Shown here in pieces: positions 9,001 to 64,000 of a stretch of 64,000 nt of DNA (positions are counted from its first letter, which is position 1; each line of letters begins with the position of its first letter). The stretch comes from a virus. Both the position numbers and the translations under genes were made by a program. Below the pieces are notes generated by a model. The model had not been told where the DNA came from and did no database searches. It was given only the letters and a program-made list of their open reading frames with translations. The stretch is from positions 4,378-68,377 of IMG/VR virus record IMGVR_UViG_3300045988_079139; one strand, 5' to 3'.

Positions 9001-12000
9001 ATTATGAAAATGCATTGCTGCAAGTCGCTACTGCCAATAAAAAAATGGAAAAGGGTGTTAAATCCTTAGCTTCTAACTGGGACAAATGGAATGATATTAT
9101 GGGTGATAGCGAAGCTTCAGCTTCAGATATTGCTACAATTTTACCAGAGGTTAATGATGCCGTACAAGATGTTTTAAATCTTGATACTAGTGAGTTCGCC
9201 ATGTTACCTCCTGATTTTGCTCGAAAGCATTGGGATTTAATTCAAGACGTTGTTAAGGGCGTAGAAGGATCTGTAGATAAATTGCGTAATGTAGCAGGCC
9301 AAGAAATTTTAATGCAAATTGATGGCGTGCTAGATGCCGATGGAAATCTTGACGCTCAATTTATGGCCTTACATGAAAAAATTGCTCAATACGATCAATC
9401 TCAATTTACTGTTGGAGTTGCTATTGATCCACAAGCAAATGCAGATTTTATTGCAGCTTGTAATGATATTATTCAAAAAGCTGGTATGACTGCAGAATAG
9501 GCTTAGGCTTATTTCGCATCCATGGGTTACGATATCAAGTTAAAGCCTGTTAAGCAAAAGATTACTGAAACACAATGGAATCACATTTATAAAAATGTTT
9601 ATGACGCCAAAGGAAATCTGTCTGGTAGAGTAATTTAGAAAGCTTGGCCTTCTACATTTACTGGTGAAGTTGATGCTTTGGCCATTGAGACTATTACTCC
9701 AAATGGCTCTTATGGTGGTGGTATTGGAGTAGAGACAACTCCTCCAAAATCTTCTACATCTGCCGCTGATTCATCAGGCGGTAATAATGATGAGCCAGAA
9801 GCAGCAGAAGAAGAAGAAGTTTCTAAAAAGTCTGATATTGTCGATAGATATCATACAGTTAATCGACAATTGGAGGATATGACTAAGGCGATGGAAAAAG
9901 CTTCCAAAGCCGCAGATAAATTATGGAGTCGTAAAAGATTACAGTATTTAAAAGATTAGAATGAATTATTAGATCAAGAAATAGGGTTACTGGAAACAAA
10001 GAAGCAAGAAGCAGAAGACTATCTTCGAGATGAAGATATTCCTAATTTAACTTAGGCTATGGCAGATGCCGGCTTTAATGCTACTTTTGATGATAATGGT
10101 GAAATTACAAATTATAGAAGCGTTATGGACACTTTGGCAGATTAGCTAATTGCCGCGCAAAATCAGCGTAATACGCTAGCTACAAAAGACGATCAAGATG
10201 CTTATACTAAAACTGTTATTGAACCTTTAGAGAAAAAGATTGAAGAATTGCAGGCTGCAATTGAAATGTATGAAGCAACATTAGATACTATTGAAGAAGT
10301 AGATACTGAAATTCAAGATCGAGTAGACCAGAAACTTGCTAATAATTATGAAGCTTGGAGCTTAGAGCTTGAATTAGACATTGCAATCAATGAAAGAGAT
10401 TTGGAATTATTAGATTATTACTTATCTAAAATTGAAGACGATGTTTATTCTATGGCTGAAGCCGCAGCTTATATGATTGGTTCTTTAGAAGGACTAGCTT
10501 CTGGAGAATTCGGTGGTCAATTAGGCATATACTTAAACAGCTTATCAACTTATAGTTCAGCCCTAGATGATTTAAATACAAAATTAGCTGCTGGAGAAAT
10601 TACTGAAGCAGCCTATGAAGAAGGTCTAGAAGAAATTCGTTCTGGTTTAATGGATAATTTATCTTCATTAAATGAATTGGACGATGCCATGTTAAATTAT
10701 TATGGTGATACTCTATCTATGGTTACAGAAGAAATTGATAAATATACTGAAAAAATGGAACATCAATCTTCTGTTCTGGAACACTATAGTAATATGATGG
10801 AAATCTTAGGTAAGTCTCAAGATTATGAATCAATGGGTACTATTTTGCAAGGTCAAGCTGATGTATTAGCAGACCAAGTTGATGTTGCAAAAGCTGAATA
10901 TGATTTATATGCACAAGAAGCTGCTAATAAGCGTAAATTATATGAAGATGCTATTGCGGCTGGTGACCAGGCAGCAGCAGAAGTCTACAAGAAAGAATGG
11001 GAAGCTGCTGATGAAGCCGCCATGGAAGCTCAATCTAATATGCTAGATAAGACTGAAGAGTGGGCAGAATCCATGAAGTCAGTTGTTGAAAATAAGTTGG
11101 CAGGTTTAGCGCAATCCTTGGAAAGTGCTTTAACGGGTGGAACTTCATTCGATGAATTAACCACTTCTTTGGAGCGTGCGGCAAGCTTACAAGAAGAATA
11201 TCTAACTACTACAAATTAGATTTATGAAACTAATAAATTAATGCGTACTGCACAGCAAGAAATTGATAAAACTACAAATACTGTTGCAAAATAGCGTTTG
11301 AAAGATTTTATTAAAGAAACTGACCAGTTGCAAGATAAGTCTAAATTAAGTCAATATGAGTTAGAAATTCAACAAGCTAAATATGATTTGCTTCTGGCTG
11401 AAATCGCTTTAGAAGAGGCTTAGAGTGCTAAATCTACTGTCCGTTTGCAGCGTGACGCTGAAGGTAATTTCGGTTATGTATATACTGCAGACCAAGACCA
11501 ATTAGCTAATGCTCAGCAAGAATTAGAGAATGCTCAAAATAGTCTATATAATATTGGTTTAGAGGGCGCCAATGAGTACACTGAAAAATACTCTCAAACC
11601 ATGCAAGAAATGTATGATACATTAACCTCAATCCAAGAGGCTTGGTTGAATGGTGAAATTGCTACTCAAGAAGAATATGATAGACAAATGTTGGCGGCTC
11701 AAGAATATTATTATCAGTAGTTAGAAGATTATTCTAGCTTATATAGTGTTGCCATTTCCACAGACAGTCGCGTTGTAAAAGATGCTTGGAGCACTGGTTT
11801 TAACTCAATGATGAGTAAAACCAACGAATGGAAAGACAAAGTCAATCAATATAGCGCCGAAGCTCGTGAGACTTTAGTCAATTGGTATGCTAAGGTTGAT
11901 GAAATCGCTAATAAGACTGGTTTAGATAATATTGCTTCTAAGGTAAAGGCCGTTACTGACGAATCTAAGGCTTTGAAAGATGCTGTTATTGGCGAAGATG

Positions 12001-12836
12001 GTAAGGGCGGAGTTGTTCAAGCTCTTAAAGATGAATTGACTGCAGTAAGCAATTTAACTGGTGGTTATGCATCTTTGCGTGGCACCATTTAGGGATTAAT
12101 TGCAGACTATGAAGCATTAATGGATACTGTTAATAATGCTTAGAATCAGCAAACTTCAATTAATCAAACAACTGAAAATGGTGACGGAGGCAGTAATGGT
12201 GGAGACACTGGAGGTAACACAGGCGGTGATACCGGAGGTAATAATACTGGAGGTAACACTGGTGGAAATACCGGAGGTAATAATACTGGAGGTAACGTTA
12301 CTCCAACATTGGCCGAGGGTCAAGATGTTACTGTTAAAGCTACTGCTACTCACTTCTCACGAGATGGCGGTAATGGAACTCGTATGAGATCCTTCGTACC
12401 TGGCTCTACTTATTCAGTAATGTAGATTCAGGGTGAAGAAGTTCTAATTGGACGCAATGGCACTGCCACAGGATGGGTAAGAAAAACTGACCTAGTTGGT
12501 TTTAATACTGGTGGTTACACTGGAGAATGGGGTCCATATGGTAAATTAGCCATTTTGGATGAAAAGGAATTGGTGTTAAATAAGAATGATACAGCTAATT
12601 TCTTAGCTAGTATGGAATTATTAGAACATATTCTAGAGATAATTGATTTGTAGGCCGCAAGCGCTCAGCTTGGTGGTATATTAAGTAGTCCTGGATATGC
12701 AGATACACCAACTGAAACAATTGAACAAAATGTTCATATTGAAGCATCATTCCCCGCAGTTCAAGATAGAAATGAGATTGAAGAAGCATTTAATACTCTT
12801 ATTAATAGGGCTTCTCAATATGCTAATCGAAAATAA
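3027..12836 (+). CDS. Tail tape measure protein, 3,269 aa, read through about 41 in-frame TAG codons
   Basis: GTG start 7 nt after AAAGGAG. A single frame runs open from 3027 to TAA at 12834-12836 and is broken only by TAG. Every gap between ORF-track fragments (3348, 4077, 5163, 5439, 5925, 6855, 7515, 7884, 8835, 9678, 10248, 11445, 11808...) was checked codon by codon. The protein is Ala/Gln-rich coiled coil. It has classic TMP N-terminal-domain sequence (AQSIASAEIP...GLSYEYATAALATVTATTRQSADVVGTAFKTLFARIQD) and a hydrophobic segment near 8330-8410, as TMPs typically do. Confidence 0.8.
12185..12300 (+). repeat. Intragenic tandem repeat of about 15-18 nt encoding GG(D/N)TGGNTGG... (Gly/Thr/Asn-rich) within the TMP C-terminal region
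   Basis: Repeated ggaggtaa(c/t)a(c/a)tgg(t/c)gg(a/t)(g/a)a(t/c)acc units. This explains the spurious ORFs on both strands at 12136-12387. Confidence 0.7.
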
Positions 12837-26567: not shown

Positions 26568-28043
26568 TTGCCAAATTATGTAAAGTTTAGACGTGGTACG
26601 CCAGAAGCGTATAAAAATCTATTGGATCTTGGTCGAATTGAGCAAGATACCCTATATTTCTTATATAAAGAAGATGGCTCCACAGAAGCGACCTTATATT
26701 TAGGAACTAAGTTAATTGGCGGTGGATCAGAAAGCTCCGGAGGCGCGTCTACACTGCGTGACTTAACAGATGTTTTAATCCAAGAGAACTTGGCAGATAA
26801 ATCAATTTTGATTTATGATACAAAAGCATCTGCTTGGGTTGATAAGACATTGGCAGAGGTTGTTCCCACTATGGTGGGAGCAACCATTGCTTCCTCTGGA
26901 GTTGGCGGATTGGTTCCAACCCCTCCCCAATTAGATGAAAATGGCGAATTAAAGTTCTTAGCAAATAATGGCGAATGGGTTCATATTGATACAACCAATA
27001 AGAATCAGCACATTATTTCCGTTGAGAACGGTGAAATGTTATTACATGAAAATGTAATTAATGAAGCTACTAAGGAATTAGAATTATCCGTAAATGATAT
27101 TCTAATTATTAAAGACCCTATCTCCGCAAATAAGTGGCAACACACCGCTTATGTCTATAATGGAGCAAATTGGGTTGCAATGGATGGTAATTATAATGCA
27201 GAGAATGTTTATTTCGATGAGGATTTAATTACTACTTTTGCAATTGGTAATATTTCACTTACTAATGGTCAAGGCAAAATTGCAGCCGCAGGTAAAAACT
27301 TAAAAGAAGTTTTTAATACAATTTTCTTAACAGAAAAAAATCCTAGCACTACTCAACCTTCAGTAAGTTTCTCTTCTGTCACTTCTGGAGGATATGAAGT
27401 TGGTACTACTGTAACTCCTTCTTATAATGCATCATTTAGCACAGGCTCTTATTCTTATGGTCCTGCTACTGGTGTAACTGTAGATTCTTGGGAAGTTACT
27501 TCCACAGATGGAGATACAAGTGATGCTAAATCTGGCACTTTTGCTTCTTTTATTGTGGAAGATGATACAAATTATACCATTACTGCAAAAGCAAATCATA
27601 GCGCTGGCGTTGTTCCTGTAACAAATGTCGGTAATGATTATGAAGATGGCGCAATTAAAACTGGTAGTAAGAGTAAAACTTCTTCTGCCATTTATGGCTA
27701 TCGCAACAGTTTCTATGGTACTGCAGAAAATAAAGATGCTTTAGATTCTGACAAGATTAGAGCTTTAACTGCAAGCGGTTATGCTTTAGCTAATGGTGCT
27801 CAGATTGAAGTTGCAATTCCTTTGGATGCTATGCGTGTAATTATTGCTTATCCAGCAACACTAAGAGATGTAACTTCCATCTTAGATGTTAATGGCATGA
27901 ATGCTGAAATTGTTTCTGGTTTTACCAAGCAAACAATTGAAGTTGAAGGCAAAGACGATTATGACGCAATTAGTTACAAAGTTTATACAATGGATTATGC
28001 AAATCCAAATGATAAAGAAAATACTTATAAAGTACAAATCTAA
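26568..28043 (+). CDS. Tail fibre / receptor-binding-type protein (491 aa, TAG-free)
   Basis: TTG start after AAGGAG. The N-terminus (FRRGT...LYF...LYLGTKLIGG) belongs to an N-terminal module shared with 29448, 31294 and 41052. Confidence 0.6.
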   Translation: MPNYVKFRRGTPEAYKNLLDLGRIEQDTLYFLYKEDGSTEATLYLGTKLIGGGSESSGGASTLRDLTDVLIQENLADKSILIYDTKASAWVDKTLAEVVPTMVGATIASSGVGGLVPTPPQLDENGELKFLANNGEWVHIDTTNKNQHIISVENGEMLLHENVINEATKELELSVNDILIIKDPISANKWQHTAYVYNGANWVAMDGNYNAENVYFDEDLITTFAIGNISLTNGQGKIAAAGKNLKEVFNTIFLTEKNPSTTQPSVSFSSVTSGGYEVGTTVTPSYNASFSTGSYSYGPATGVTVDSWEVTSTDGDTSDAKSGTFASFIVEDDTNYTITAKANHSAGVVPVTNVGNDYEDGAIKTGSKSKTSSAIYGYRNSFYGTAENKDALDSDKIRALTASGYALANGAQIEVAIPLDAMRVIIAYPATLRDVTSILDVNGMNAEIVSGFTKQTIEVEGKDDYDAISYKVYTMDYANPNDKENTYKVQI

Positions 28044-28060
28044 GAAGGAGGATAAAGATA

Positions 28061-29428
28061 ATGGCTTTAGATTTTGGTAAATTAAATTTCAGCGTTAGCT
28101 TTAATCCTACTTCTGCTTTCCCGATTGATGCAAGATGTTATTTTGAAAGCTATGCTGCTGCAGAAGCTGCGGCCGCAAAAGCAGAAGCCGCAGGAAGCAC
28201 CAATACAGTTTATTACTATGGTCAAAATGTGGTTGTTGTTGAAAATGGTGTAGCAAGTTTCTACATTATCCAACCAGATGGTACTCTTGGCGAAGTCGGT
28301 GGAAAAATTACCATTAATACAAGTTTATTTGAATATGACGAAGATGGTAATTTAAGTCTAAAGGGATTTGCTGATGCAGTTGCTGGCGCACAACTTGTAA
28401 AAGGCGCTGATAATACAGTCTCTTGGGTTAAACCAGATTCTACTACTGTAGAAGGTTTATCAACAGCTGTTGAAACTCTTCGTAAGGATGTAGACGCTTT
28501 AACTAAGAATGTATATACAAAAACAGAAGTTGAAAAATTAATTTCTGATGCAGCTCATTTAAAGCGTAAAATTGTTGATAGGGTTGAAGATATTTTAGCT
28601 TATATCACTGAAGCTGAAGATGAAGAGCATTATATTTTTATGGTACCTACTGGCTTCCAAGAAGAAGCTGATAAATATGATGAATATATTGTTGTTAATG
28701 GTGCCATTGAAAAAATTGGTTCTTGGGAAGTTAATCTTGATGACTATGCAACTAAAGATGATTTAAAAGATAAAGTCGATAAAGTTGAAGGATATGGATT
28801 AATTTCTAATGAGAATGCTAATAAACTTGATGGAATTGAAGAAGGCGCTGAAAAGAACTACATTAGTTCTGTAGAAGAAGCTCAGTTCCAAGTTATTGAA
28901 GGTAAACTAAAATTAATTGCTGTTCAACAGAATATTATTACCGGATTAGCAGATACATTAAAAGGCAAAGTTGATGTTATTGAAGGTAAGGGTTTATCTA
29001 CCAATGATTTTACAAATGAGTTAAAAGCTAAGTTAGAAGCAATTCCTGTTGCTGATTTAAATGCAGCTTTATCAAAAGTTAATGCTTTAGACAAGGATAT
29101 CTATGGATATCAAGATGAAGAGGGCAATGAGGTTCCTGGTTTAATTGCAGTTGTTCCTCAGTTACAAAATGAGTTAAATTTATTAACTCAAACTGTAAAT
29201 ACTAATAGCGGCAGTATTCAAACTTTGAATTCAACTGTCGGAACTTTAACACAAACTGTTAATACTTTAACCCAGACAGTTAATGGTTTTGCTGATACAT
29301 ATGTTTCTATTGCTAATTTCAATGCAGTTGTTGGTAATTTAGATTCTATGTTGGAAAACCAGGTTAATATCATGAATGAAATTGATGATATTAATAATAG
29401 ACTGACTTGGCATGGTATTGAAGACTAA
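28061..29428 (+). CDS. Fibre-like coiled-coil protein (455 aa, TAG-free)
   Basis: AGGAGG RBS. The protein is Ala-rich N-terminally and has C-terminal repeats (LTQTVNT...) with a coiled-coil appearance. Confidence 0.6.
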   Translation: MALDFGKLNFSVSFNPTSAFPIDARCYFESYAAAEAAAAKAEAAGSTNTVYYYGQNVVVVENGVASFYIIQPDGTLGEVGGKITINTSLFEYDEDGNLSLKGFADAVAGAQLVKGADNTVSWVKPDSTTVEGLSTAVETLRKDVDALTKNVYTKTEVEKLISDAAHLKRKIVDRVEDILAYITEAEDEEHYIFMVPTGFQEEADKYDEYIVVNGAIEKIGSWEVNLDDYATKDDLKDKVDKVEGYGLISNENANKLDGIEEGAEKNYISSVEEAQFQVIEGKLKLIAVQQNIITGLADTLKGKVDVIEGKGLSTNDFTNELKAKLEAIPVADLNAALSKVNALDKDIYGYQDEEGNEVPGLIAVVPQLQNELNLLTQTVNTNSGSIQTLNSTVGTLTQTVNTLTQTVNGFADTYVSIANFNAVVGNLDSMLENQVNIMNEIDDINNRLTWHGIED

Positions 29429-29447
29429 TAAAGGAGGAAAATAAATA

Positions 29448-31157
29448 ATGGCTGATGTTTTATTTAAACGCGGTTCACAAACCGATTTAGACGCATTGCG
29501 CGTTAATAGTGATAAAACAAAGAGAATTCCTGGAGCTTTTTATTTAACTGAAGACTCTCATAGATTATATGTTGGTATCAACAATGATAATAATGATATC
29601 GTTCCTGTGAATGAGGGTATTACTACTGTTGAGACTTTAAATCAGTTACCTAATCCTTCAACCGCAGATGATAAGAAATTAACTACGGGTCAATTCTATT
29701 ATGTTTATAAAGACAACTCTGGTAATGCGCTAAATGTTTTAGCTATTTATAATGGCCAAGAGTGGATTCAAATTAACTCTAATACTGATACTACTATCAG
29801 TTCTTTCACTCAGACCGTATCTGTTTCCAGTGGTACTGCAACTATTAAGGGTGATATTAAAGACTCTTCTGGTACTACTAAATCTAGTAATTTTAAAATT
29901 ACAGTTGCTGGTGGCTTAACATTAAGTGTTAATACTGCTAAAGATACTTTAACTATTGACGCTAGTGCTTTACAGCAGGATTTAGGACATACTGTAGACA
30001 CTTCTGGCGTTGATATTACTTTATTACATCCTAAAACAACTGGAAATAAATTCCGTATTGAAGCTGGTAATTTCACTACTATTGAAGCAAACTCTGACAA
30101 TACTGGTATTAAAATTAACAGTGCTGACCATAGAGTAAAATCTGTCGCCATCGGCAATGGCAATGCCGCAGGTAATAGCACTAATGGTTTTAATATTAAA
30201 GTTACTGATAATAGTAGTAATTCAAAGAGTGCTAATTTTGATCCAACCATTAAGCTGGCAAATGACACAGATGCTCGTCATTTCACTGGCGGTAACATTA
30301 CTTTGCCAGTATATACCACTACTGAAATTGATGATAAATTCAAATCAGAGCTAAAAGCAATTGATGGTATGACCTATAAAGGTACTATTGGTACTAATGG
30401 TACTGGTCACAATGGTAATGCATTACCAACAACTAATGTTCGCATTGGTGACACTTATAAAACTCTTTCTACTTTTACTGTTGCAATTGGTGGAGTAACT
30501 CCCTCTGAAGGCGATGTAATTATTGCTCGTTCTACAGATGGAACTGAAAATGCTAATGGTTATATTGATTCCGCTAAAATTACTTGGGATTTAATTCCTT
30601 CTGGTAACGAAGATACTACTTACTATGGAGTATCTGCAACACACGGTATTGGACTAAAAGACAGTAGCAATGCAACTGTTATGGCTTTCACATTAGAAAG
30701 CGGAAATGCTAGCATTACTTTAGAAGATACCACTGGTGATAAATCCAATAAAGTAAAAATTACTCACGCAGCTCCAACTGCCCAGACTAAAACTGCTGAA
30801 ACTATTACTGGTGTAAAAGGAAGCGGAGATCACGTTCAAAACACTTTGACTGGTACTGTTATTAAAGATGTACTGAAAGATTCAACTGGTCACGTTGCTG
30901 GTTTACAACAGGCCAATATTAGTTTTTCTGACACTAATGCAACTTTAGTTTCTGCTGGTGATACTACTGTAGCTGCAGCTTCTTTGGGTAGTAGTTCTAG
31001 TAAAGTTTCTTTAAAAACTACTTTGAAACAATCTAGTGGTACTACTAAAACTTCCACCTCTGTATTTACTGTATATTCTGATAATAAAAATTTACAAGTT
31101 TCTGCAGATGCTACTAATGATGCTGTAAAAGTATCCTTTGTGTGGGATTCTTTCTAA
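29448..31157 (+). CDS. Tail fibre-like protein (569 aa, TAG-free), Thr/Ser/Gly-rich beta-rich body
   Basis: AAAGGAGG RBS. Its N-terminus (LFKRGSQTDLDAL...GAFYLTED.HRLYVG) is shared with paralogues. Confidence 0.6.
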   Translation: MADVLFKRGSQTDLDALRVNSDKTKRIPGAFYLTEDSHRLYVGINNDNNDIVPVNEGITTVETLNQLPNPSTADDKKLTTGQFYYVYKDNSGNALNVLAIYNGQEWIQINSNTDTTISSFTQTVSVSSGTATIKGDIKDSSGTTKSSNFKITVAGGLTLSVNTAKDTLTIDASALQQDLGHTVDTSGVDITLLHPKTTGNKFRIEAGNFTTIEANSDNTGIKINSADHRVKSVAIGNGNAAGNSTNGFNIKVTDNSSNSKSANFDPTIKLANDTDARHFTGGNITLPVYTTTEIDDKFKSELKAIDGMTYKGTIGTNGTGHNGNALPTTNVRIGDTYKTLSTFTVAIGGVTPSEGDVIIARSTDGTENANGYIDSAKITWDLIPSGNEDTTYYGVSATHGIGLKDSSNATVMAFTLESGNASITLEDTTGDKSNKVKITHAAPTAQTKTAETITGVKGSGDHVQNTLTGTVIKDVLKDSTGHVAGLQQANISFSDTNATLVSAGDTTVAAASLGSSSSKVSLKTTLKQSSGTTKTSTSVFTVYSDNKNLQVSADATNDAVKVSFVWDSF

Positions 31158-40297: not shown

Positions 40298-40981
40298 ATG
40301 ATTACAACTGCTGAAGAGTATTACCGCGCTTTATTTAGAGTTCAAGATGATAATCCTCCAACGCTAGCCCTATTACCTCACGCAGAAACTACTTATAAAG
40401 TTGATTTAAATAAGAGAACTATTGAAACTCCTGAGTTTCTAAGTGTTGCTCGTGACCATAAAGCAGAAAATATCTACTTTGAAGTAGATAGATTCTGCGA
40501 TTATATGGACTTATCAACTTGTTGCTGCATTGTACAATATGAGGCTGGAGAAGGAGAAACTCGTAGAAGCGGTATTTATCCAGTACCTTTTTATGATATT
40601 ACAACACCAAATAATCGTAGAGAAATTGAGAATCAAGGACAGGATATTCCAGAAGGTGGAGAAACCACCGAAACAGATAATCCAGTTTTATATATTAAAG
40701 ATAAAATGTTAGTGCCTTGGTGCTTAGATGGTGCGGCAACCGCTTATCCCGGTCCTATCACCTATTCCCTACAGTTTTATCGTTTGAATATTGATGGTAC
40801 TAAATTCGTTTATAATATGAATACCACTCCAGTAACAAGTGAAATCCTTTATGGCATGGACGTTGTAAAAGAAAATTACAACGGTGCATTTGATATTGAG
40901 CCAGATGAATATCAAAAGATTTTGGCTCGTGTCGTTGCTTTAGAGGGAACATTTGATATTAAGTGGATGGATATGTTCTAA
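40298..40981 (+). CDS. Structural protein (227 aa), paralogue of the N-terminal region of 38308
   Basis: AAGGAGGG RBS, TAG-free, followed by a terminator. Confidence 0.6.
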   Translation: MITTAEEYYRALFRVQDDNPPTLALLPHAETTYKVDLNKRTIETPEFLSVARDHKAENIYFEVDRFCDYMDLSTCCCIVQYEAGEGETRRSGIYPVPFYDITTPNNRREIENQGQDIPEGGETTETDNPVLYIKDKMLVPWCLDGAATAYPGPITYSLQFYRLNIDGTKFVYNMNTTPVTSEILYGMDVVKENYNGAFDIEPDEYQKILARVVALEGTFDIKWMDMF

Positions 40982-40990
40982 TTTTTATAT

Positions 40991-41028
40991 GGGTGGAATG
41001 ATTTAATCGTTCCACCCATTTTTTTATT
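40991..41028 (+). terminator. Rho-independent terminator
   Basis: gggtggaatgatttaatcgttccaccc hairpin followed by atttttttatt. Confidence 0.8.
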
Positions 41029-41051
41029 ATATATAGATTGGAGGGATAAAA

Positions 41052-41711
41052 TTGGCAGATTTAAAATTTTTAATGGGTATTGAGAAGACTAACACTGGCG
41101 ATTCTCGTTTACCTGCCGCAAATGTGGCTATCGTAAAAGGACAAGTATATTTTGCAGAAGATAAATCTAAAAATGGTTTTGCAAGAATTTACTATGATAC
41201 AGAAGATGGAAGACGCGTTACTGTCAATAGCTTATCATCAACCTATGACTCTAGTAATCATGAAATTGCTAGTTATTATGTTACTTTTCCAACCTTACAA
41301 CTGGATTACAGTAGTGGTAAATATGCTTTAATATTTAGTGATGGAAAAGGTTCAAAATCAACTTATAATTTATCAGATATTTATCCCAGTCAGTGGACTT
41401 GGAGCGGAGGTACGACCGCAGGTCCTACTGCTTCTATTAAGTTATTAAGAAATGGTTTAGATTATGGCAATGTCAGTGTTGCTGCGATTCCTACAGCTTC
41501 AACTTCAGCTTCTGGTATTATTACAACCGGAAGTCAGACTCTTGCTGGTGAAAAAACTTTTAATAATAAAATGACTGTTGGTACTGGTTCATCTTCTGGA
41601 ACCATTTTACAAGTCAGTGGTAATGCTAATATTACTTATAAATTAAGTTTCAATGATAAAGCTCATCTACAATATGACAATGCAGATGAATGTCTATATT
41701 TTACATTTTAA
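41052..41711 (+). CDS. Fibre N-terminal-module protein (219 aa)
   Basis: TTG start 6 nt after GGAGGG. It shares the N-terminal motif (KF..G.......L.....V.G.VYFAED....RIYYDTEDG) with 26568, 29448 and 31294. Confidence 0.55.
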   Translation: MADLKFLMGIEKTNTGDSRLPAANVAIVKGQVYFAEDKSKNGFARIYYDTEDGRRVTVNSLSSTYDSSNHEIASYYVTFPTLQLDYSSGKYALIFSDGKGSKSTYNLSDIYPSQWTWSGGTTAGPTASIKLLRNGLDYGNVSVAAIPTASTSASGIITTGSQTLAGEKTFNNKMTVGTGSSSGTILQVSGNANITYKLSFNDKAHLQYDNADECLYFTF

Positions 41712-55119: not shown

Positions 55120-55827
55120 ATGTTTAATGGAAATGGTTATTCTTTGGCAGATGTCGCTGCCGCAACTCGTGGCACAGAAGATGGTTTCTTCGGTGGAGCA
55201 AATGGATGGTGGATTATCCTACTGTTTATGTTCTGCGGCTGGGGTAATGGCGGATGGGGTGGCAACCGCACTGGCACTGAGAATGTGCGCGATGCTGTCG
55301 CATATGGTTTCGACATCAATAATTTGGAGAATGGCGTTCGTGGTTTAGAACATGGCATTTGCGATGGTTTCTATGATATGAACACTTCTCTGCTAACTGG
55401 TTTCGGCAATGTTGCAATGGGCAATATGCAGAATACCAATGCTCTTATGGGTCGTTTGTCTGATATGGCTGCACAGAGTGCTGCCTGCTGCTGTGAGACT
55501 CAGCATCTAATTGAGAGAGGATTGTGTGAAGTTAATTATAATATCCTAACTCAATCTAACGCAACAAATACTAATATTGCGTCTGCCGCACGTGATATTA
55601 TTGAAAGCAACAATAACGGCGTTCGTTCCATCCTAGACTTCTTGACTCAGGACAAGATTGCTACTTTGCAGGCTGAAAATCAGGCTTTGCGCTTGACCGC
55701 TTCTCAGCAGGCTCAGAATGCTTTCTTAATCGACCAGCTAGGAACTAAAGCACCCGTTCCCGCATATGTAGTAGCTAATCCTTATGCTTCTGGATATTAT
55801 GCTGGCTGTGGATGCAGTAACATCTAA
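55120..55827 (+). CDS. Membrane-anchored Gly/Trp- and Cys-rich protein (235 aa), TAG-free, with host-like codon usage
   Basis: AAGGAGG RBS. It has one predicted TM helix (WWIILLFMFCGW) flanked by GG(A)NGW and GWGNGGWGG, then CCC and CGC cysteine clusters and a Gln/Asn-rich coiled-coil-like C-terminus. Gln is encoded almost entirely by CAG. Confidence 0.65.
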   Translation: MFNGNGYSLADVAAATRGTEDGFFGGANGWWIILLFMFCGWGNGGWGGNRTGTENVRDAVAYGFDINNLENGVRGLEHGICDGFYDMNTSLLTGFGNVAMGNMQNTNALMGRLSDMAAQSAACCCETQHLIERGLCEVNYNILTQSNATNTNIASAARDIIESNNNGVRSILDFLTQDKIATLQAENQALRLTASQQAQNAFLIDQLGTKAPVPAYVVANPYASGYYAGCGCSNI

Positions 55828-56701: not shown

Positions 56702-56751
56702 AAAAAATAAAGGCGAGATAATCATCGTGATTATCTCGCCTTATTTTTTTT
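56698..56751. terminator. Bidirectional rho-independent terminator between the converging late (+) and replication (-) operons
   Basis: aggcgagataat / attatctcgcct hairpin flanked by A9 on the left and T9 on the right. Confidence 0.8.
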
Positions 56752-56754
56752 GCT

Positions 56755-57225
56755 TTAAACAAGTGGGTCATTCTCAGTCTTTAATGGTAAAGCAACTGCT
56801 TTATTATAAAATGCTTCAGCTTGACCATTACCACCTAAACCTTTGTATAGCTTATAGAATTCGATTAATTGTTCCAGTTGTCCTTCAGTAATGTATCCTT
56901 GATGTAAAAAACCTTTACATAACTGAATTAGACGGAAACGATAGGACGCAACAATTAAGTTCATATGAGATTTTTCCATATTTTCATTATCACGGCAGTA
57001 TTTTCTTAAATCTTCTAATTCTTGAAATACTGGTTCTAATTCAATATCAATCTTATTCTCAATCTTTTCATCCAATTTCTATTCTGCTAAGGTGGCAGCA
57101 TTTTTCTCAGCTGTTTCTTTCTCTCTCATAATTTGAGAATTTTTCCATTTTGCATAGCCAATAACAGCAGCGCTAATTAGACCGAACAAAATTTCTGTTC
57201 CCCACTCTGCTAAAAGAGCTTCCAT
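56755..57225 (-). CDS. Membrane-anchored hypothetical protein (156 aa, 1 TAG between the TM segment and the soluble domain)
   Basis: The ATG at 57225 (minus strand) has GGGGG upstream. The N-terminus MEALLAEWGTEILFGLISAAVIGYAKW is a TM helix. An in-frame TAG at 57076-57078 joins it to the ORF-track fragment 56755-57075, whose start is TTG. Confidence 0.45.
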
Positions 57226-57290: not shown

Positions 57291-57776
57291 TTAAGACCAG
57301 TCGAATACTTCGACCTTGTTATTTACATAATGAGCACCAATACAAATAGCATCACATTCATCTTGAGTTGGTTTTACGCCATAGGTTTTTTCAACCCAGG
57401 CCTGTGCCGCTTTCTTTTGGGCTGGACGATCCTTGCCCTTGATTCCAAGAGTGGATTTCCATACCGTAGAAAGAACTGCGGTACGAGGCATTTTTAAAGT
57501 TACAAATAATTCATATAAAACGCCAAACACTTCTGCCAATGCTTTAAATGTAGCTACATTATTTGCCACATTACCTTGTAATTGGATATCTTCAAAAACC
57601 ACTTCATCAATATCATATTCATCAATGAGCGAGTTTACTTTACTTCTGATAAAATGTAGTCTATCTCCAACATCAGAATGGTCTGCAGTAAACTTGCCAA
57701 AAGTGACAAGCTTACCATCATTGAATACAGCCCATCCGCTTGTGCGGCTTGCTTGATCTAATGCTAGAACTCGCAT
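57291..57776 (-). CDS. ruvC: RuvC-like Holliday junction resolvase (161 aa)
   Basis: N-terminal motif MRVLALDQASRTSGWAVF with a RuvC/YqgF-like acidic catalytic pattern. TAG-free. Confidence 0.55.
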   Translation of the reverse strand: MRVLALDQASRTSGWAVFNDGKLVTFGKFTADHSDVGDRLHFIRSKVNSLIDEYDIDEVVFEDIQLQGNVANNVATFKALAEVFGVLYELFVTLKMPRTAVLSTVWKSTLGIKGKDRPAQKKAAQAWVEKTYGVKPTQDECDAICIGAHYVNNKVEVFDWS

Positions 57777-58315
57777 TACTTAGAAGTAGAGCCAAATCCG
57801 CCAGTGCGTTCTCCACCTGCGACGTCATTTTCAGTTACGCCGTAGGGAAGAATAATTGCCTGACCAATGGCCTCTCCCTTTTTGATTTGAATATTGAATG
57901 GAGATAGATTATAAATCTGGAAGAAGATTTCTCCTTCATTGTCTGGATTGTTGTAATAATCAGCATCAATAATGCCAATACCATTACCCATCATTAACCA
58001 ATACTTTAAAGGAGAAGAGCTACGAACACTCAACTGCAACCAAGTACCTGGGTCAAGCTTGCACTTCATACCAGTAGAAACAAGAGTTGGCTTGAAGCCA
58101 GTTTCCTTTGTGAATTTAGCCATTAGCTCCATAGTGACGAACTCATCATTAGCTACGGGCCACAACTCTTTAGCTTCTGCAACCATTTGCCACAAGGAAG
58201 GAATAATATAATCCTCTGCAGCAACCATATCATAACCTGCGGACTGTGCAGTCTTTCTGACCGGCATAGCAATATCCGCATCTGTATATTTAGAAACTTT
58301 TTCAAAAATAGCCAT
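57776..58315 (-). CDS. dut: dUTP diphosphatase (trimeric dUTPase, 179 aa)
   Basis: Motifs SVRSSS, GIIDADY...GE and the C-terminal GGERTGGFGSTSK. TAG-free. Confidence 0.85.
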   Translation of the reverse strand: MAIFEKVSKYTDADIAMPVRKTAQSAGYDMVAAEDYIIPSLWQMVAEAKELWPVANDEFVTMELMAKFTKETGFKPTLVSTGMKCKLDPGTWLQLSVRSSSPLKYWLMMGNGIGIIDADYYNNPDNEGEIFFQIYNLSPFNIQIKKGEAIGQAIILPYGVTENDVAGGERTGGFGSTSK

Positions 58316-59369: not shown

Positions 59370-59852
59370 TCAATTTTTTTTCTTTAAGTCAATAATTCGC
59401 TGATTGCGGGAGCCTCTCATTTCCAGTGTAACATCACGCTCTTCTTCAATATATGGACCATCAATTAAGAAGTCCGCAATCTCCAAAACGTGTTTTACTT
59501 GAGGATGACTCGCGTGTTGTAGCTGTTCATATGTATAGCCACTCCAGATATATACCTTTGTTCCTGGAACTTTCTCCTTAACCTCTTTAGCTACCAAATA
59601 GGTAAGGAAAGCATTTTCGTCACAAAGAGGTTCGCCGCCCATGATACACAAATCTCTTTGTATACCCTGGGCGGTTAGTCCGGAGATAATCTCATTTAAA
59701 GTCCCAGTAGTAAATTCCTTACCACGGTTGAAGTCCCAAGTTTCAGGATTATGGCATCCTTTACATCTGTGCGGACATCCTTGTACAAAAAAGCTGACAC
59801 AAAGACCGGGCGCGGCGGTAATATCATTTAAAATTAAACCACTATATTTCAA
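59370..59852 (-). CDS. nrdG: Anaerobic ribonucleoside-triphosphate reductase activating protein (radical SAM)
   Basis: CPHRCKGCHNPETWD radical-SAM cluster motif, a length of 160 aa, and a position directly downstream of nrdD. Confidence 0.85.
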   Translation of the reverse strand: MKYSGLILNDITAAPGLCVSFFVQGCPHRCKGCHNPETWDFNRGKEFTTGTLNEIISGLTAQGIQRDLCIMGGEPLCDENAFLTYLVAKEVKEKVPGTKVYIWSGYTYEQLQHASHPQVKHVLEIADFLIDGPYIEEERDVTLEMRGSRNQRIIDLKKKN

Positions 59853-59902: not shown

Positions 59903-62110
59903 TTAAGAAAATTTACTATGCTTAACTCTGTGTTCAACCTCTGACTGTTTTCCTTTGTTAAAATGGCGATAATCAGTGGTTAGATAGCCTGTAACACGAC
60001 GCAGTTGCTGAATGTTGTGGCTGCCGCATTCGGGACAAGCATCATTGAATTCAGCCTGGTAGCCGCAATCTAAACAAGAGTCAATTGGGAAGTTGAATGC
60101 TAGATAAGGAATATCCAACTTCTGGAATGCATAGTCAATAATCTGCTCAATTGCTTTTGTATTCTTCACGAAAGTAGAATCTAACTCAACGTAAGTGATG
60201 CATCCACCAGTAGGATACTTACAGAAAGGAGATTCAACTTCTAACTTTTCAAAGATACCAATTTCGTGCCACACGGGAACATGGTGGCTATTGGTTAAGA
60301 ACTCATGGTCAGTGACATTAGGAATAATACCATACTGCTTACGAAGAGCCTTTGCCGCAGTATGACACAAACCTTCAGCAGGAGTTGCATAACAAGAGAA
60401 GTTCAAGTCATGTCTGTCAGAAGCCTCTTTTGCGTATTCGTTAATTCTCTTAACAACTTTTAAAGCAAAAGCATGAACTTCTTTATCTTCTGCGTGATTC
60501 TTACCAAACAGCGCCTGGCACATTTCAGCAATACCAATATAACCCATAGCTAGAGTTCCGTGCTTCAGTGCTTCATAGTTAGACATTACACAATCTTGAG
60601 CGTCTTTCATAGTACCATTCTGATACATAAAAGGAGCAGCTTCAGGTGGCTGATTAACCATAATATCAAAACGCTCCAGAAGACCCTGTTCACAAAGCAT
60701 CAATAAATCCTCGAACGCAGACCAGAAACCGTCTAAGTCCGGGGTCTCACGCTTGCCCAGACAAACTCCGTATTCAATACCAAGCTTCGGCAAAATCATA
60801 GTATTAGGAACAAGGTTTCCACGACCGACACGATTATAGGAATCAGTATGTCTGTCATAACCAAGCATGGTGCGGCAACCCATAGTGGCGAAATAAGTAT
60901 CCTTATTATCTGGGTCTTCATGTGCTTGAGAATAATCACAATTGACAAAGTTAGGATAAATACGCTTACTCAAAGACTCAATAGCCATCTGCTTTAAGTC
61001 ATAGTTGGGGTCGCCAGGGTTGGCATTACATCCAGCCTTATACTGGAAAATACTAATTGGGAAAATAGGAGTTAGGTGATGCTTGCCGATACCGGACATA
61101 GAAGCACCCAACATTTTCTTGGTTACAAAACGGCCTTCACTAGAAGTGTCACGACCAAAGTTGATGGAAGTGAAAGGAACCTGGCTTCCCGCACGGGACT
61201 CCAAAGTGTTCAAATTATGGAACATTGCTTCAGCAGACTGCTTACCTTCACGTTCCAGTTGCTTTAGTGCGAAAGCAAAAGCCGCACTCATATCTTGTTT
61301 CAACTGATGATTGTCCATTTCAATGGGACCGTGTTGATTTAAAATAATATCAGCATTTTCATCGCTCTGACCTTCAACATCAGTTAGATAGTGATGCATA
61401 TGTTTACGGAAACTCTTCTTAACAAAAGGAGCCAAGTCGTAGTCCAGGTGAACAGTACCAACTCCGCCGAACTGTACTTGCGACTGGCATTGGAAAATAA
61501 CTGCTGTTTGCTGGCATGCACTACTTAAAGTAGCAGGAGGACGAATATCACCATTACGAGTTACAAAACCTTCATTGAAAACTTTTTCAAAGTCTACAAA
61601 TAAACAGTTGTGTTCACCAATGTTGGTTTTCTCCAAATCGTGTTGGTATAATAGCATATTCTTGTGTGCTTGGCTAACTTCTGGAGAAAGAGTATAATCC
61701 AGCGCAATCACTTTTTGAACATCTGCTGACGCCTCTTTTTCACGACCGGAGAAGCTCTTCTCGTCTACGTTAGCATTTGAATTTTCGACAGCGGTAGCTT
61801 CAGTGCGCTTCATAACAGCTCTGATTAACTTACTACGACGAGTACGCTCCTTGCTACGCTGATCACGATAAATAATATAAGATTTAGCTACTGCTGGATA
61901 TTCACTCTTCATCAAGTAGCTCTCAACTAAATCTTGAATTTGTTCGACGGACATATCGACACCGCGACTACCAATTAAATCTGCAATCTCTTCAGCAGTA
62001 TCGGATTCATACACGGAGCCATATGCACTGACCATCGCTTTATTAATGGCACGGACAATCTTGTTTGGATCAAACAGAACGCGAGTGCCGTCTCTCTTAA
62101 TTACGTGCAT
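59903..62110 (-). CDS. nrdD: Anaerobic (class III) ribonucleoside-triphosphate reductase
   Basis: 735 aa. It has an N-terminal ATP-cone (VIKRDGTRVLFDPNKIVRAI), a C-terminal Zn ribbon (CLDCGYQ...CPECGS) and the glycyl-radical motif RVTGYL. GGAGG RBS. There are zero TAG codons in 735 codons. Confidence 0.9.
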   Translation of the reverse strand: MHVIKRDGTRVLFDPNKIVRAINKAMVSAYGSVYESDTAEEIADLIGSRGVDMSVEQIQDLVESYLMKSEYPAVAKSYIIYRDQRSKERTRRSKLIRAVMKRTEATAVENSNANVDEKSFSGREKEASADVQKVIALDYTLSPEVSQAHKNMLLYQHDLEKTNIGEHNCLFVDFEKVFNEGFVTRNGDIRPPATLSSACQQTAVIFQCQSQVQFGGVGTVHLDYDLAPFVKKSFRKHMHHYLTDVEGQSDENADIILNQHGPIEMDNHQLKQDMSAAFAFALKQLEREGKQSAEAMFHNLNTLESRAGSQVPFTSINFGRDTSSEGRFVTKKMLGASMSGIGKHHLTPIFPISIFQYKAGCNANPGDPNYDLKQMAIESLSKRIYPNFVNCDYSQAHEDPDNKDTYFATMGCRTMLGYDRHTDSYNRVGRGNLVPNTMILPKLGIEYGVCLGKRETPDLDGFWSAFEDLLMLCEQGLLERFDIMVNQPPEAAPFMYQNGTMKDAQDCVMSNYEALKHGTLAMGYIGIAEMCQALFGKNHAEDKEVHAFALKVVKRINEYAKEASDRHDLNFSCYATPAEGLCHTAAKALRKQYGIIPNVTDHEFLTNSHHVPVWHEIGIFEKLEVESPFCKYPTGGCITYVELDSTFVKNTKAIEQIIDYAFQKLDIPYLAFNFPIDSCLDCGYQAEFNDACPECGSHNIQQLRRVTGYLTTDYRHFNKGKQSEVEHRVKHSKFS

Positions 62111-62195: not shown

Positions 62196-62765
62196 TTACT
62201 TTTGTCCTCGCGCGAACCTGCGTCCGCTCTGGACCAAAATCTCCTTGACGTTATCTTCCAGGTCACCAGGAGTGTTGTTAATCAGACCGGTGTAGCTGAA
62301 ATCAATATTATCGAAATCATTATAGTCAGCTTGGAAACGTCTGACAACTTCTCGAACGTCAGGGTCCTCTTCTCTATTTAACTGGCGTAATAGACGGATC
62401 TTGTCATTGGTTTGAATCCAAAAGACGAGAACATTACAATCCGGACGAGCCAAGAGAGACTCAACACCTGTGGGATTGAATACTCCAATGTTAATTACTC
62501 CATCACTGCGGACAGAGTCATAACTTGTGCCATAGAACCAGTCATTAAAAACAGTACACTCTAACATTTCTCCATCAAGAACTTTCTATCCGAATTGCTC
62601 GGGAGTGTAATAAAAGTAATTAACTCCGTGCGCTTCACCCTAGCGCATAGGACGAGTCGTACAGCTGATAATTTCGTGGAGGGTAGGGTCGGCCGCAAGC
62701 ACAGCCTACATAGTCCGATCTTTACCAGAACCTGCTTCTCCCATTAAGGCAATAACGTTGTACAT
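62196..62765 (-). CDS. gmk: Guanylate kinase-like nucleoside monophosphate kinase (189 aa) containing 3 in-frame TAG codons
   Basis: ATG at 62765 with GAGGAGG upstream. P-loop GEAGSGKD, then the GK signature CTTRPMR(TAG)GEAHGVNYFYYTPEQFG(TAG)KVLDGEMLE...FYGTSYDSV. The TAGs are at 62708, 62645 and 62588 on the minus strand. It overlaps the upstream gene by 22 nt. Confidence 0.6.
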
Positions 62766-62992
62766 TTAATGTCTTCCTCCTCTTCAAATTCGTATTCTAG
62801 CTTACCAGGAAGTTCGCCTTCCCAGAAAGTTGCATGACCATCACAATCGAGATTCTCACACTTATAAGGATATTGTGCTGGATAAGTAGTGAGACAAATG
62901 CCAGTGGGGATTAACTCCCCACCGCACTTATCACAAATTGCTCTGGTTGTATAAATATTTTTTACTTTGTATCTTTTAAGCATCTTCCTCAA
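62744..62992 (-). CDS. Small zinc-finger-like protein (82 aa, CxxC...CxxxxC)
   Basis: Cys pairs CDKCGG and CENLDCDGH. It overlaps both neighbouring genes. Confidence 0.45.
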   Translation of the reverse strand: MRKMLKRYKVKNIYTTRAICDKCGGELIPTGICLTTYPAQYPYKCENLDCDGHATFWEGELPGKLEYEFEEEEDIKCTTLLP

Positions 62993-64000
62993 TGCCTCCT
63001 TGATAACGAGAGTCTTTCAATACCAATTCTCCATTGGGAAGAACTGACTCAATCTTATATAACTGGTGACCGCCCGTAGAAGCATACTTCTTAGATACAA
63101 AATCGTCACCAGAACGAATACCAGTAACCACAATCATATTTCCACGATTGAACCAAGACTTCTCCATAATCTTCTTAGTTCCATCTGCTTGACGCTCAGA
63201 AATCTGCTTATCAAACATTGTAAAATATTCTTTTCTAAACTTGACATTTACAACACCTGTTGTAGTCAAAATAGTTACTGTACTCTTAGTCTTATTCTTC
63301 GCAATACAAGTGCCGCAGATACGATTCAACTTAAAGATATGAATATCTTTTCCGCCCTTTGTGAAAGTCTTCTCAATCACTGGGTCTTCTGGTAGACTAT
63401 AAAAGTCTACAAAACCATATTTGTCGTTATTAATATGCTCAAGTTCATGCTCGTGATAATAGAAGCACAATACTTCCATTTCCCACGCGGAGATAGTTCC
63501 CTTCGCATATTTCTCCCAATCCTGCATAAAGATTTCAGTATTCAGTGCATCTAAGATAGCTTCTTTGTCAGACGCAATCCATGCTCTAAATACATCCATA
63601 TGCTTCTGGTAAATTGCATCCCAATTCTTAGTTTTTACAAACCAAGCAAGGTTATCTGTTTCCATAATATCATCACATTCAATTTCATGCAAGAACGCAA
63701 TTGCTCTTTCATCAAGTGAATACATATTAGGATAAGCATATTTATCTGCCTTTGTAATTGCTTTTAAATATCTGTTAAACTCGTAGACTCTACGAGCCAA
63801 AACCTGTTCAGGAGTCTTTTCAGGCAGAAGATTATGTTTAATCAAACCACCCATATTCTGTAATGTGATACGACTCTTCTTATCACAAGTCTCCCAAATA
63901 TACCATGCCATAGTAAACTTTCTATCTTCCATATCATCAAAAGCTCCGCCCTTGATTAGAGAAATCATTGCCTGCTTACTAGGCTTAACTTTATTCAAAA
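62976..64000 (-). CDS. dnaE: DNA polymerase III alpha-subunit-like replicative polymerase, C-terminal part (partial; the N-terminus lies beyond the window end)
   Basis: LIKGGAFDDME matches the DnaE helix-hairpin-helix region (LIKAGAFD). The C-terminal OB-fold-like segment reads TVTILTTTGVVNVKFRKEYF...NMIVVTGIRSGDDF. The ORF runs into the window edge. TAG-free. Confidence 0.55.
   Translation of the reverse strand, partial: LNKVKPSKQAMISLIKGGAFDDMEDRKFTMAWYIWETCDKKSRITLQNMGGLIKHNLLPEKTPEQVLARRVYEFNRYLKAITKADKYAYPNMYSLDERAIAFLHEIECDDIMETDNLAWFVKTKNWDAIYQKHMDVFRAWIASDKEAILDALNTEIFMQDWEKYAKGTISAWEMEVLCFYYHEHELEHINNDKYGFVDFYSLPEDPVIEKTFTKGGKDIHIFKLNRICGTCIAKNKTKSTVTILTTTGVVNVKFRKEYFTMFDKQISERQADGTKKIMEKSWFNRGNMIVVTGIRSGDDFVSKKYASTGGHQLYKIESVLPNGELVLKDSRYQGGIEEDA

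Follow-up and report, generated by a model that had tools for sequence, protein, structure and literature searches.

In-frame TAG codons in a guanylate-kinase-like gene of a phage predicted to read TAG as glutamine

Results

Genes and transcription of the locus

The window (the whole stretch of 64,000 nucleotides of viral DNA that was analysed) carries on its minus strand a replication block, in which a guanylate-kinase-like gene containing three in-frame TAG codons is located between a DnaE-type DNA polymerase and the anaerobic ribonucleotide reductase NrdD (Table 1). The polymerase was identified through its relatives, which have PHP, DNA_pol3_alpha and HHH_6 domains. The small cysteine-rich ORF that separates it from the kinase overlaps both genes and gave no family match; the overlap takes in the start of the kinase, and several relatives have a kinase start that overlaps the stop codon of DnaE. 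The initial annotation had claimed a ribosome-binding site for the kinase, which is present as a Shine-Dalgarno-like element ahead of the start codon, and had described the surrounding operon as TAG-free and early. The second term is an assumption; the first holds for DnaE and NrdD but not for the last gene of the block, which has one TAG at a codon that is CAA in two relatives (loci L001 and L004).

Table 1. Features of the replication block and of the kinase gene (positions of the window)
Feature	Position	Strand	Remarks
DnaE-type DNA polymerase, 3' part	62976..64000	-	visible 340 aa, no TAG; runs off the window
Small Cys-rich ORF (CxxC...CxxxxC)	62744..62992	-	about 79-82 aa, between DnaE and kinase, no TAG
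Shine-Dalgarno-like GAGGAGG	62776..62782	-	10 nt ahead of the kinase ATG, within the 3' end of the ORF before it; direct reading
Guanylate-kinase-like CDS	62196..62765	-	189 aa, ATG start, TAA stop, three in-frame TAG
P-loop, codons 9-16	62718-62741	-	GEAGSGKD
TAG codon 20	62706-62708	-	helix alpha1, after the P-loop
TAG codon 42	62640-62642	-	variable x of the TTRPxRxGE loop
TAG codon 60	62586-62588	-	helix alpha2
NrdD anaerobic ribonucleotide reductase	59903..62110	-	735 aa, no TAG; 85 nt 3' of the kinase
NrdG activating enzyme	59370..59852	-	no TAG
dUTPase	57776..58315	-	no TAG
RuvC-like resolvase	57291..57776	-	no TAG in the window
Last block gene, function unassigned	56755..57225	-	156 aa; one TAG, codon 49 (57079-57081)
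Bidirectional terminator hairpin	56710..56742	.	15-bp stem

The only strong terminator is the hairpin at the meeting point of the minus-strand block with the structural block on the plus strand. There is no terminator between the kinase and NrdD, where the intergenic fold has a z-score of 0.26, and sigma-70-like matches are no more frequent in the region than chance would produce (22 found versus 23 expected). A separate transcription unit for the kinase was considered and rejected, since there is no terminator on either side of it. The kinase and its neighbours form a single co-oriented and uninterrupted string of overlapping or closely spaced ORFs. One sigma-70 match of 11/12 positions (TTGTCA-17-TATAAT, 62319-62347, minus strand) is located inside the kinase gene, about 210 nt 5' of NrdD, but the codons that it covers (VVRRF..DYND) are themselves conserved, which makes the conservation of the match uninterpretable.

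The gene order is shared across the family: primase, RecJ, a lysozyme-like gene, helicase, DnaE, (the small ORF), kinase, NrdD and NrdG, followed by dUTPase, RuvC, the 156-aa gene and the convergent structural block. In loci L011 (7340-8161 and 12880-13794) and L014 (12600-13205), genes for GIY-YIG, LAGLIDADG or HNH endonucleases interrupt DnaE and NrdD, which suggests intron- or intein-type insertions in some relatives. The 402-kb record IMGVR_UViG_3300032167_000002 (loci L019 and L024) contains two full replication blocks, whose kinases share only about 55% identity, and several other markers are duplicated as well; rather than a phage of 400 kb, the record seems to be a fusion, made during assembly or binning, of two related phages of about 190 kb each.

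The predicted kinase

The product of the gene matches the Pfam family Guanylate_kin (PF00625) over residues 4-175 with 60.8 bits, where the cut-off is 25.2, and it matches phrog_1815 (“guanylate kinase”) at 3.9e-27. Its identity to annotated phage guanylate kinases is 29-33%, and 33% is the highest found among GenBank phages, which contain no close relative; GenBank DNA searches with the window returned short NrdD and polymerase matches only. An AlphaFold2 model of a 97%-identical orthologue (P0001), which stands in for the window protein, has a pLDDT of 91.4, and its 50 best matches in the PDB are all guanylate kinases, with TM-scores up to 0.85. The model thus confidently predicts the three-domain fold of Gmk, consisting of core, NMP-binding and lid domains.

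The orthologues have 57 invariant columns, which include G9, G12, G14, K15, S34, R38, R41, Y50, E69 and Y78. The last six of these align with the matching residues of solved Gmk structures, where Ser34, Arg38, Arg41, Tyr50, Glu69 and Tyr78 (yeast numbering) are the contacts to the phosphate and base of GMP. With Gmk and the phage guanylate kinases of phrog_1815 (for example Enterococcus phage EF1-type and Brevibacillus phage Sundance), the protein has in common its fold (TM 0.78-0.85), its P-loop lysine and the motifs built around Ser34, Arg38, Arg41, Tyr50, Glu69 and Tyr78-Gly-Thr-Ser. It differs from Gmk at two sites. In the P-loop, the lysine of the Walker A pattern GxxGxGK[ST] is kept, but an aspartate, Asp16, takes the place of the Ser/Thr, without exception in 19 orthologues. 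The DxD segment of Gmk is also replaced, with E. coli “fldidwqG” aligning with “gvfnp...tG” (GVFNP), so that the acidic, guanine-contacting DxD residue is missing from the alignment. Given the GKD P-loop and the replaced DxD segment, the substrate of the predicted kinase may not be GMP. The P-loop of the T4 gp1 dNMP kinase also reads GKD. The assignment of the gene to the guanylate/dNMP kinases, which the initial annotation had made from its P-loop and TTRPxR-type motif, is upheld by the family matches and the modelled fold, with the guanine specificity uncertain.

The gene is maintained by strong selection. With TAG taken as glutamine, dN/dS is 0.007 at a dS of 0.35 and 0.039 at a dS of 0.98, the lowest in the block; the comparison with a 94%-identical relative gives 33 synonymous codon differences and a single non-synonymous one, and that with an 86%-identical relative gives 59 and 15. 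Orthologues were drawn from IMG/VR and ENA and comprise 52 distinct lineages with identities of 46-98%. Neither a frameshift nor an in-frame TAA or TGA was found in the kinase in any of the 52, and both the length of the protein and its catalytic residues are conserved. The initial annotation had argued from the preserved frame, ribosome-binding site and domain integrity that the gene is not decaying. The low dN/dS, the invariant catalytic residues and the confident fold agree with this argument, and the decay alternative is refuted, the lesions that would mark it being absent from all of these lineages. The comparison of sequences predicts a functional nucleotide-kinase gene under strong purifying selection.

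Decoding of TAG

Several patterns indicate that TAG is a sense codon in this genome and that it specifies glutamine. The summed length of ORFs of at least 100 aa rises from 45.7 to 72.3 kb once TAG is treated as sense, and the longest reaches 3269 aa. The plus-strand genes (structural and others) contain 113 in-frame TAGs, or 6.2 per 1000 codons, which amounts to 16.5% of their Gln-type codons, while the stop codons of all 38 mapped genes are TAA or TGA, TAG never serving as a terminator. Between the window and two close relatives, all five variable TAG columns pair TAG with CAA or CAG. When eight gene families are compared across about 50 lineages, TAG is found opposite a Gln codon of the nearest relative at 165 of 253 sites (65%), against a background of 3.6%. 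Within the kinase itself, the invariant column of Gln128 has Q in 17/17 standard-code relatives and TAG in 6 recoded lineages. The source of the window is accordingly predicted to be a tailed phage that uses genetic code 15, in which TAG stands for glutamine. Under the standard code, genes of this kind are mis-called as fragments.

The 3269-aa ORF (3027-12836, plus strand) contains 41 TAGs and is close in size to the 3149-3209 aa tape measure of phage phAss-1. Across the genes of the window, the TAG fraction is inversely correlated with the share of CAG in CAA+CAG (Spearman rho -0.66, p=8.5e-5): where TAG is abundant, CAG is nearly missing (for example 129 CAA : 21 CAG), whereas TAG-free genes prefer it (CAA:CAG of 14:20 in NrdD and 1:8 in the gene at 73-1011). 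This anticorrelation fits an origin of the TAGs from CAG by C-to-T change, or a shared effect of codon class.

The three TAG codons of the kinase

The initial annotation had counted three TAGs in the kinase, and these are confirmed as in-frame codons of the 189-aa protein. All three are in aligned, ungapped columns of the alignment with Gmk and the orthologues, but they differ in how far they are conserved. Codon 20, which aligns with a Gln of E. coli Gmk, is TAG in 8 near-clade lineages and persists as TAG in lineages down to 61-65% identity; elsewhere it is CAG, CAA, CAT or a Lys codon. Codon 42 is TAG in 5 lineages and codon 60 in 4, in both cases close relatives only, and elsewhere the former is mostly Glu and the latter CAA, Glu or Asp. 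Conservation of the TAG positions among relatives was therefore found for codon 20 within the near clade, and was not found for codons 42 and 60 beyond close relatives.

The confinement of the codon-20 TAG to one clade is consistent with a single inherited change, although its retention down to such identities could, on these alignments, reflect selection instead of drift. The retention expected in the absence of selection can be estimated from the ordinary Gln codons, 31% of which are switched between CAA and CAG when the window is compared with the relative at locus L004. At this rate of turnover, the neutral probability that all three TAGs are retained at a dS of about 1 is 0.69^3, or about 0.33. 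In the window, the three TAGs are confined to codons 1-60 and so to the first third of the kinase gene. Clade-wide, TAGs are found in 18 columns of the kinase, of which 7 are in the first third, and N-terminal clustering as a design feature was rejected, there being no such bias across the clade.

TAG load in the block and in late genes

The kinase differs sharply from its neighbours in TAG content. In the window, TAG accounts for 3 of its 9 Gln-type codons, versus 0/51 in the four flanking genes (Fisher p=0.0025) and 1/80 in all other minus-strand genes (p=0.0028). In the near clade, the corresponding counts are 25/84 for the kinase and 73/1562 for the putatively co-transcribed neighbours (p=1e-12). 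A comparison with the late genes gives a different result: set against the late-gene/genome baseline of 0.165, the 3/9 of the kinase is no excess (p=0.17), and the TAG share of Gln codons in the near-clade kinase (0.30) is similar to that in the portal (0.31) and the endolysin (0.21).

The set of 52 lineages consists of 35 that are TAG-recoded (11 near and 24 distant) and 17 that use the standard code, in which the kinase is intact and TAG-free. Across the recoded lineages, the replication block is not TAG-free; it has a reproducible, gene-specific gradient of TAG content (Table 2). The kinase has a TAG in 10/11 near lineages and in 8/24 distant ones, leaving 16/24 distant recoded lineages without. 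RuvC is the most TAG-rich family of the block, with 2-5 TAGs in most relatives. Among late comparators, the portal has 13.7 TAGs per 1000 codons, with TAG in 39/39 recoded lineages, the endolysin has 12.4, and the abundant virion protein (phrog_2729) has 0.3, with no TAG in 40/43 recoded lineages. Avoidance of TAG is therefore not limited to the replication genes.

Table 2. TAG per 1000 codons in genes of the replication block
Gene	Near clade	Distant recoded lineages
DnaE	0.2	0.2
Helicase	0.6	0.7
dUTPase	0.5	3.2
NrdD	1.1	1.9
NrdG	2.9	3.5
RecJ	3.8	5.8
156-aa gene	5.9	18.9
Kinase	12.1	4.0
RuvC	12.5	26.0

The GC3 of the kinase (0.44) is the highest in the window, and its codon usage resembles that of its TAG-free neighbours; a low-GC3 or low-expression codon class was rejected on this value as the source of its TAGs.

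Departures from the local TAG level are seen elsewhere too. Four plus-strand genes among the structural ones are TAG-free (73-1011, 26568-31157, 40298-41711 and 55120-55827). A 330-aa gene with a C-terminal GIY-YIG domain (locus L100, 1827-2819) has 9 TAGs, while the adjoining ligase, ThyA, DnaB and primase genes are TAG-free. At locus L257 (64-2760), an endolysin-type protein with lysozyme, amidase and SH3 domains and two small membrane proteins are TAG-free and adjoin GyrB-like and topoisomerase-like genes; endolysins of this type have TAGs in 20/22 recoded lineages overall.

Suppressor tRNA

Genes for tRNAs were sought with ARAGORN in the window and about 470 loci, and with Rfam in the window and two edge loci. 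Neither program found a suppressor tRNA(CUA) in the 64-kb window, which contains no tRNA gene of any kind, though its essential genes need TAG decoding. The nearest large relative, IMGVR_UViG_3300024272_000018 (171.6 kb; loci L016-L384), has no tRNA of any kind between 15.7 and 148.9 kb (about 133 of 171.6 kb, or about 78%). Either a tRNA cluster is located in the remaining 38 kb or so of this relative, or the clade is without a suppressor of its own. With neither the window nor the 133 kb of the relative yielding a suppressor tRNA, the account of how the clade decodes TAG rests on inference. Phage-encoded suppressor tRNA(CUA) is common but not universal in code-15 phages (PMC10607447). At locus L301 (1-2000), about 2 kb 5' of an HNH-like gene contain only poor ORFs rich in Cys, His and Tyr and look non-coding; no Rfam or tRNA match was found there.

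Discussion

The reading that best accounts for these results, to which we assign a probability of about 0.7, is that the window belongs to a code-15 phage with a functional kinase gene whose TAGs are read as glutamine and are tolerated, and that the kinase is made later, or in smaller amounts, than the products of the neighbouring genes. The kinase would be transcribed in one gene string with the TAG-free DnaE, the cysteine-rich ORF, NrdD and NrdG. Its full-length translation needs an amber suppressor, which that of its immediate neighbours does not; in a host that uses the standard code, ribosomes would stop at codon 20, and the yield of kinase would probably be delayed or reduced according to the availability of the suppressor. 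The TAG load of the kinase would then reflect tolerance rather than a device specific to this gene, with each gene family having its own steady-state level of TAG: near zero in DnaE, helicase, primase, ThyA and the abundant virion protein, low in NrdD, NrdG and dUTPase, and at the level of the late genes in RuvC, the last block gene, the GIY-YIG gene and the near-clade kinase. NrdD and RecJ have TAGs in most relatives, which implies that suppression is already active while the block is being translated, and the effect on the kinase is consequently more likely to be quantitative than to be an on/off gate. Since the abundant late virion protein is TAG-free, the avoidance of TAG seems to follow the amount of a product that is needed or the promptness with which it is needed.

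The initial annotation had proposed that the kinase is deliberately placed under the control of amber suppression. That the full-length kinase depends on suppression, unlike its immediate neighbours, can be retained from this proposal. The deliberate, kinase-specific design is not supported: most genes of the block bear TAGs across the relatives at gene-specific rates, with RuvC as rich as the kinase or richer, the kinase shows no excess over the late-gene baseline, its TAGs at codons 42 and 60 are confined to close relatives and that at codon 20 to the near clade, two thirds of the distant recoded lineages have no kinase TAG, and retention of the three accords with what neutral turnover of Gln codons predicts.

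The alternative that survives best is that the TAGs are kept by selection as a timer within the operon, so that synthesis of the kinase and of RuvC waits for high suppressor activity and a single mRNA yields immediate and delayed products. Several results are in its favour, namely the sharp contrast with the putatively co-transcribed neighbours (p=0.002 in the window, p=1e-12 in the near clade), the presence of TAG in nearly all near lineages and the persistence of the codon-20 TAG down to 61% identity, the placement of all three window TAGs in the first third of the gene, and the similar behaviour of RuvC, which plausibly acts late; Borges et al. invoke such a logic for lysis genes, and also for a homing endonuclease within an early gene. 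Other results speak against it. The TAG fraction of the kinase is not above the late-gene baseline, and 16/24 distant recoded lineages do without a kinase TAG; the positions of TAG shift among 18 columns and are not biased to the N-terminus when the whole clade is considered, the codon-20 TAG fits a single inherited event, three TAGs would survive by neutral drift at a dS of about 1 in roughly a third of cases (about 0.33), and the TAGs that NrdD and RecJ have in most relatives mean that suppression must be active by the time the block is translated. A selected timer is possible but not favoured, and we regard it as unlikely. Slightly less likely again is the form in which selection acts on a particular subset of genes (the kinase, RuvC, the GIY-YIG gene and the 156-aa gene) as an in-operon translational timer, maybe without a phage suppressor tRNA. 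If a timer were at work, DnaE, the helicase and NrdD would be made at once from the one mRNA and the suppressor-dependent products later.

It is very improbable that TAG is decoded as an amino acid other than glutamine, or that the only product is a C-terminal one initiated at Met67. A standard-code ORF of 123 aa does start at this methionine (62196-62567), and ARAGORN by default labels CTA-anticodon tRNAs as “Pyl”, but the pairing of 65% of TAGs with Gln codons in the nearest relatives argues against non-Gln decoding, and a product initiated at Met67 would be without the P-loop and the TTRPxR motif. As an internal start, Met67 was rejected, since this methionine lies inside the protein as an invariant part of the EMLE motif and the GGAG that precedes it is only 2 nt away, too close for a ribosome-binding site. 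That the TAGs are true premature stops in a pseudogene, as the end of the standard-code ORF at codon 20 might suggest, can be practically dismissed in view of the low dN/dS (0.007-0.039), the excess of synonymous differences (33:1 and 59:15), the intact frame, length and catalytic residues in 52 lineages, and the use of in-frame TAG throughout the genome, essential genes included (the portal has it in 39/39 lineages).

The wider interest of the locus is that it provides a reproducible gene-by-gene ranking of TAG tolerance within one replication operon over 35 recoded lineages. That an abundant late virion protein has as little TAG as DnaE points to an avoidance governed by the amount or earliness in which a product is needed, and not by a simple division between early and late genes. 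The window also represents a large family of gut phages with genomes of about 140-200 kb, most of it undescribed; recoded and standard lineages are interleaved in this family.

Comparison with known systems

Gut phages that read TAG as Gln under code 15 include crAss-like, Lak, Garnet and Amethyst phages, among others (10.1101/2021.08.26.457843), and this decoding has been validated by proteomics by Peters et al. (PMC9523058). The heavy recoding of structural and lysis genes, and the existence of gene-family preferences, have already been described (10.1101/2021.08.26.457843; PMC9523058; PMC10607447). Borges et al. characterize the use of the alternative code in replication genes as “variable” (10.1101/2021.08.26.457843). 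The GIY-YIG gene of locus L100 resembles the homing endonucleases of early regions, for which heavy recoding has been published.

The phage studied here is like those of Borges et al. in that TAG is predicted to encode Gln, structural and lysis genes are heavily recoded while replication genes are largely or variably standard, recoding frequency is specific to the gene family, and standard and recoded lineages are interleaved (17 versus 35 here). It is unlike them in belonging to a separate, siphovirus-like lineage with a DnaE polymerase and a genome of about 140-200 kb, and in having no suppressor tRNA that could be found in the window or in about 133 kb of a relative. Its TAG-free abundant late virion protein is also unlike their pattern, and implies that the avoidance of TAG is not purely a matter of timing.

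The nearest annotated genome is that of a published code-15 phage. The best GenBank match to NrdD (46% aa identity) is in phAss-1, of the proposed Phassvirus in the “Caudoviricetes code 15 clade” (OQ749652, PMC10607447), which shares with the window phage the reading of TAG as Gln, a gene of tape-measure size (about 3150-3270 aa), DnaE, NrdD/NrdG and dUTPase. The relationship is nevertheless distant, and phAss-1 has no syntenic kinase; a tRNA-Leu and two tRNA-Sup-CTA genes (locus L015, 8677-8938) are found directly upstream of NrdD, in the position of the window kinase. Another shared trait is that orthologues in sister genomes are not recoded in the same pattern (Babkin et al. 2023, PMC10607447). 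A kinase is mentioned neither by Borges et al. (0 occurrences) nor in PMC10607447, and the kinase described here is a fresh instance of the phenomenon that Borges et al. described, not a new mechanism.
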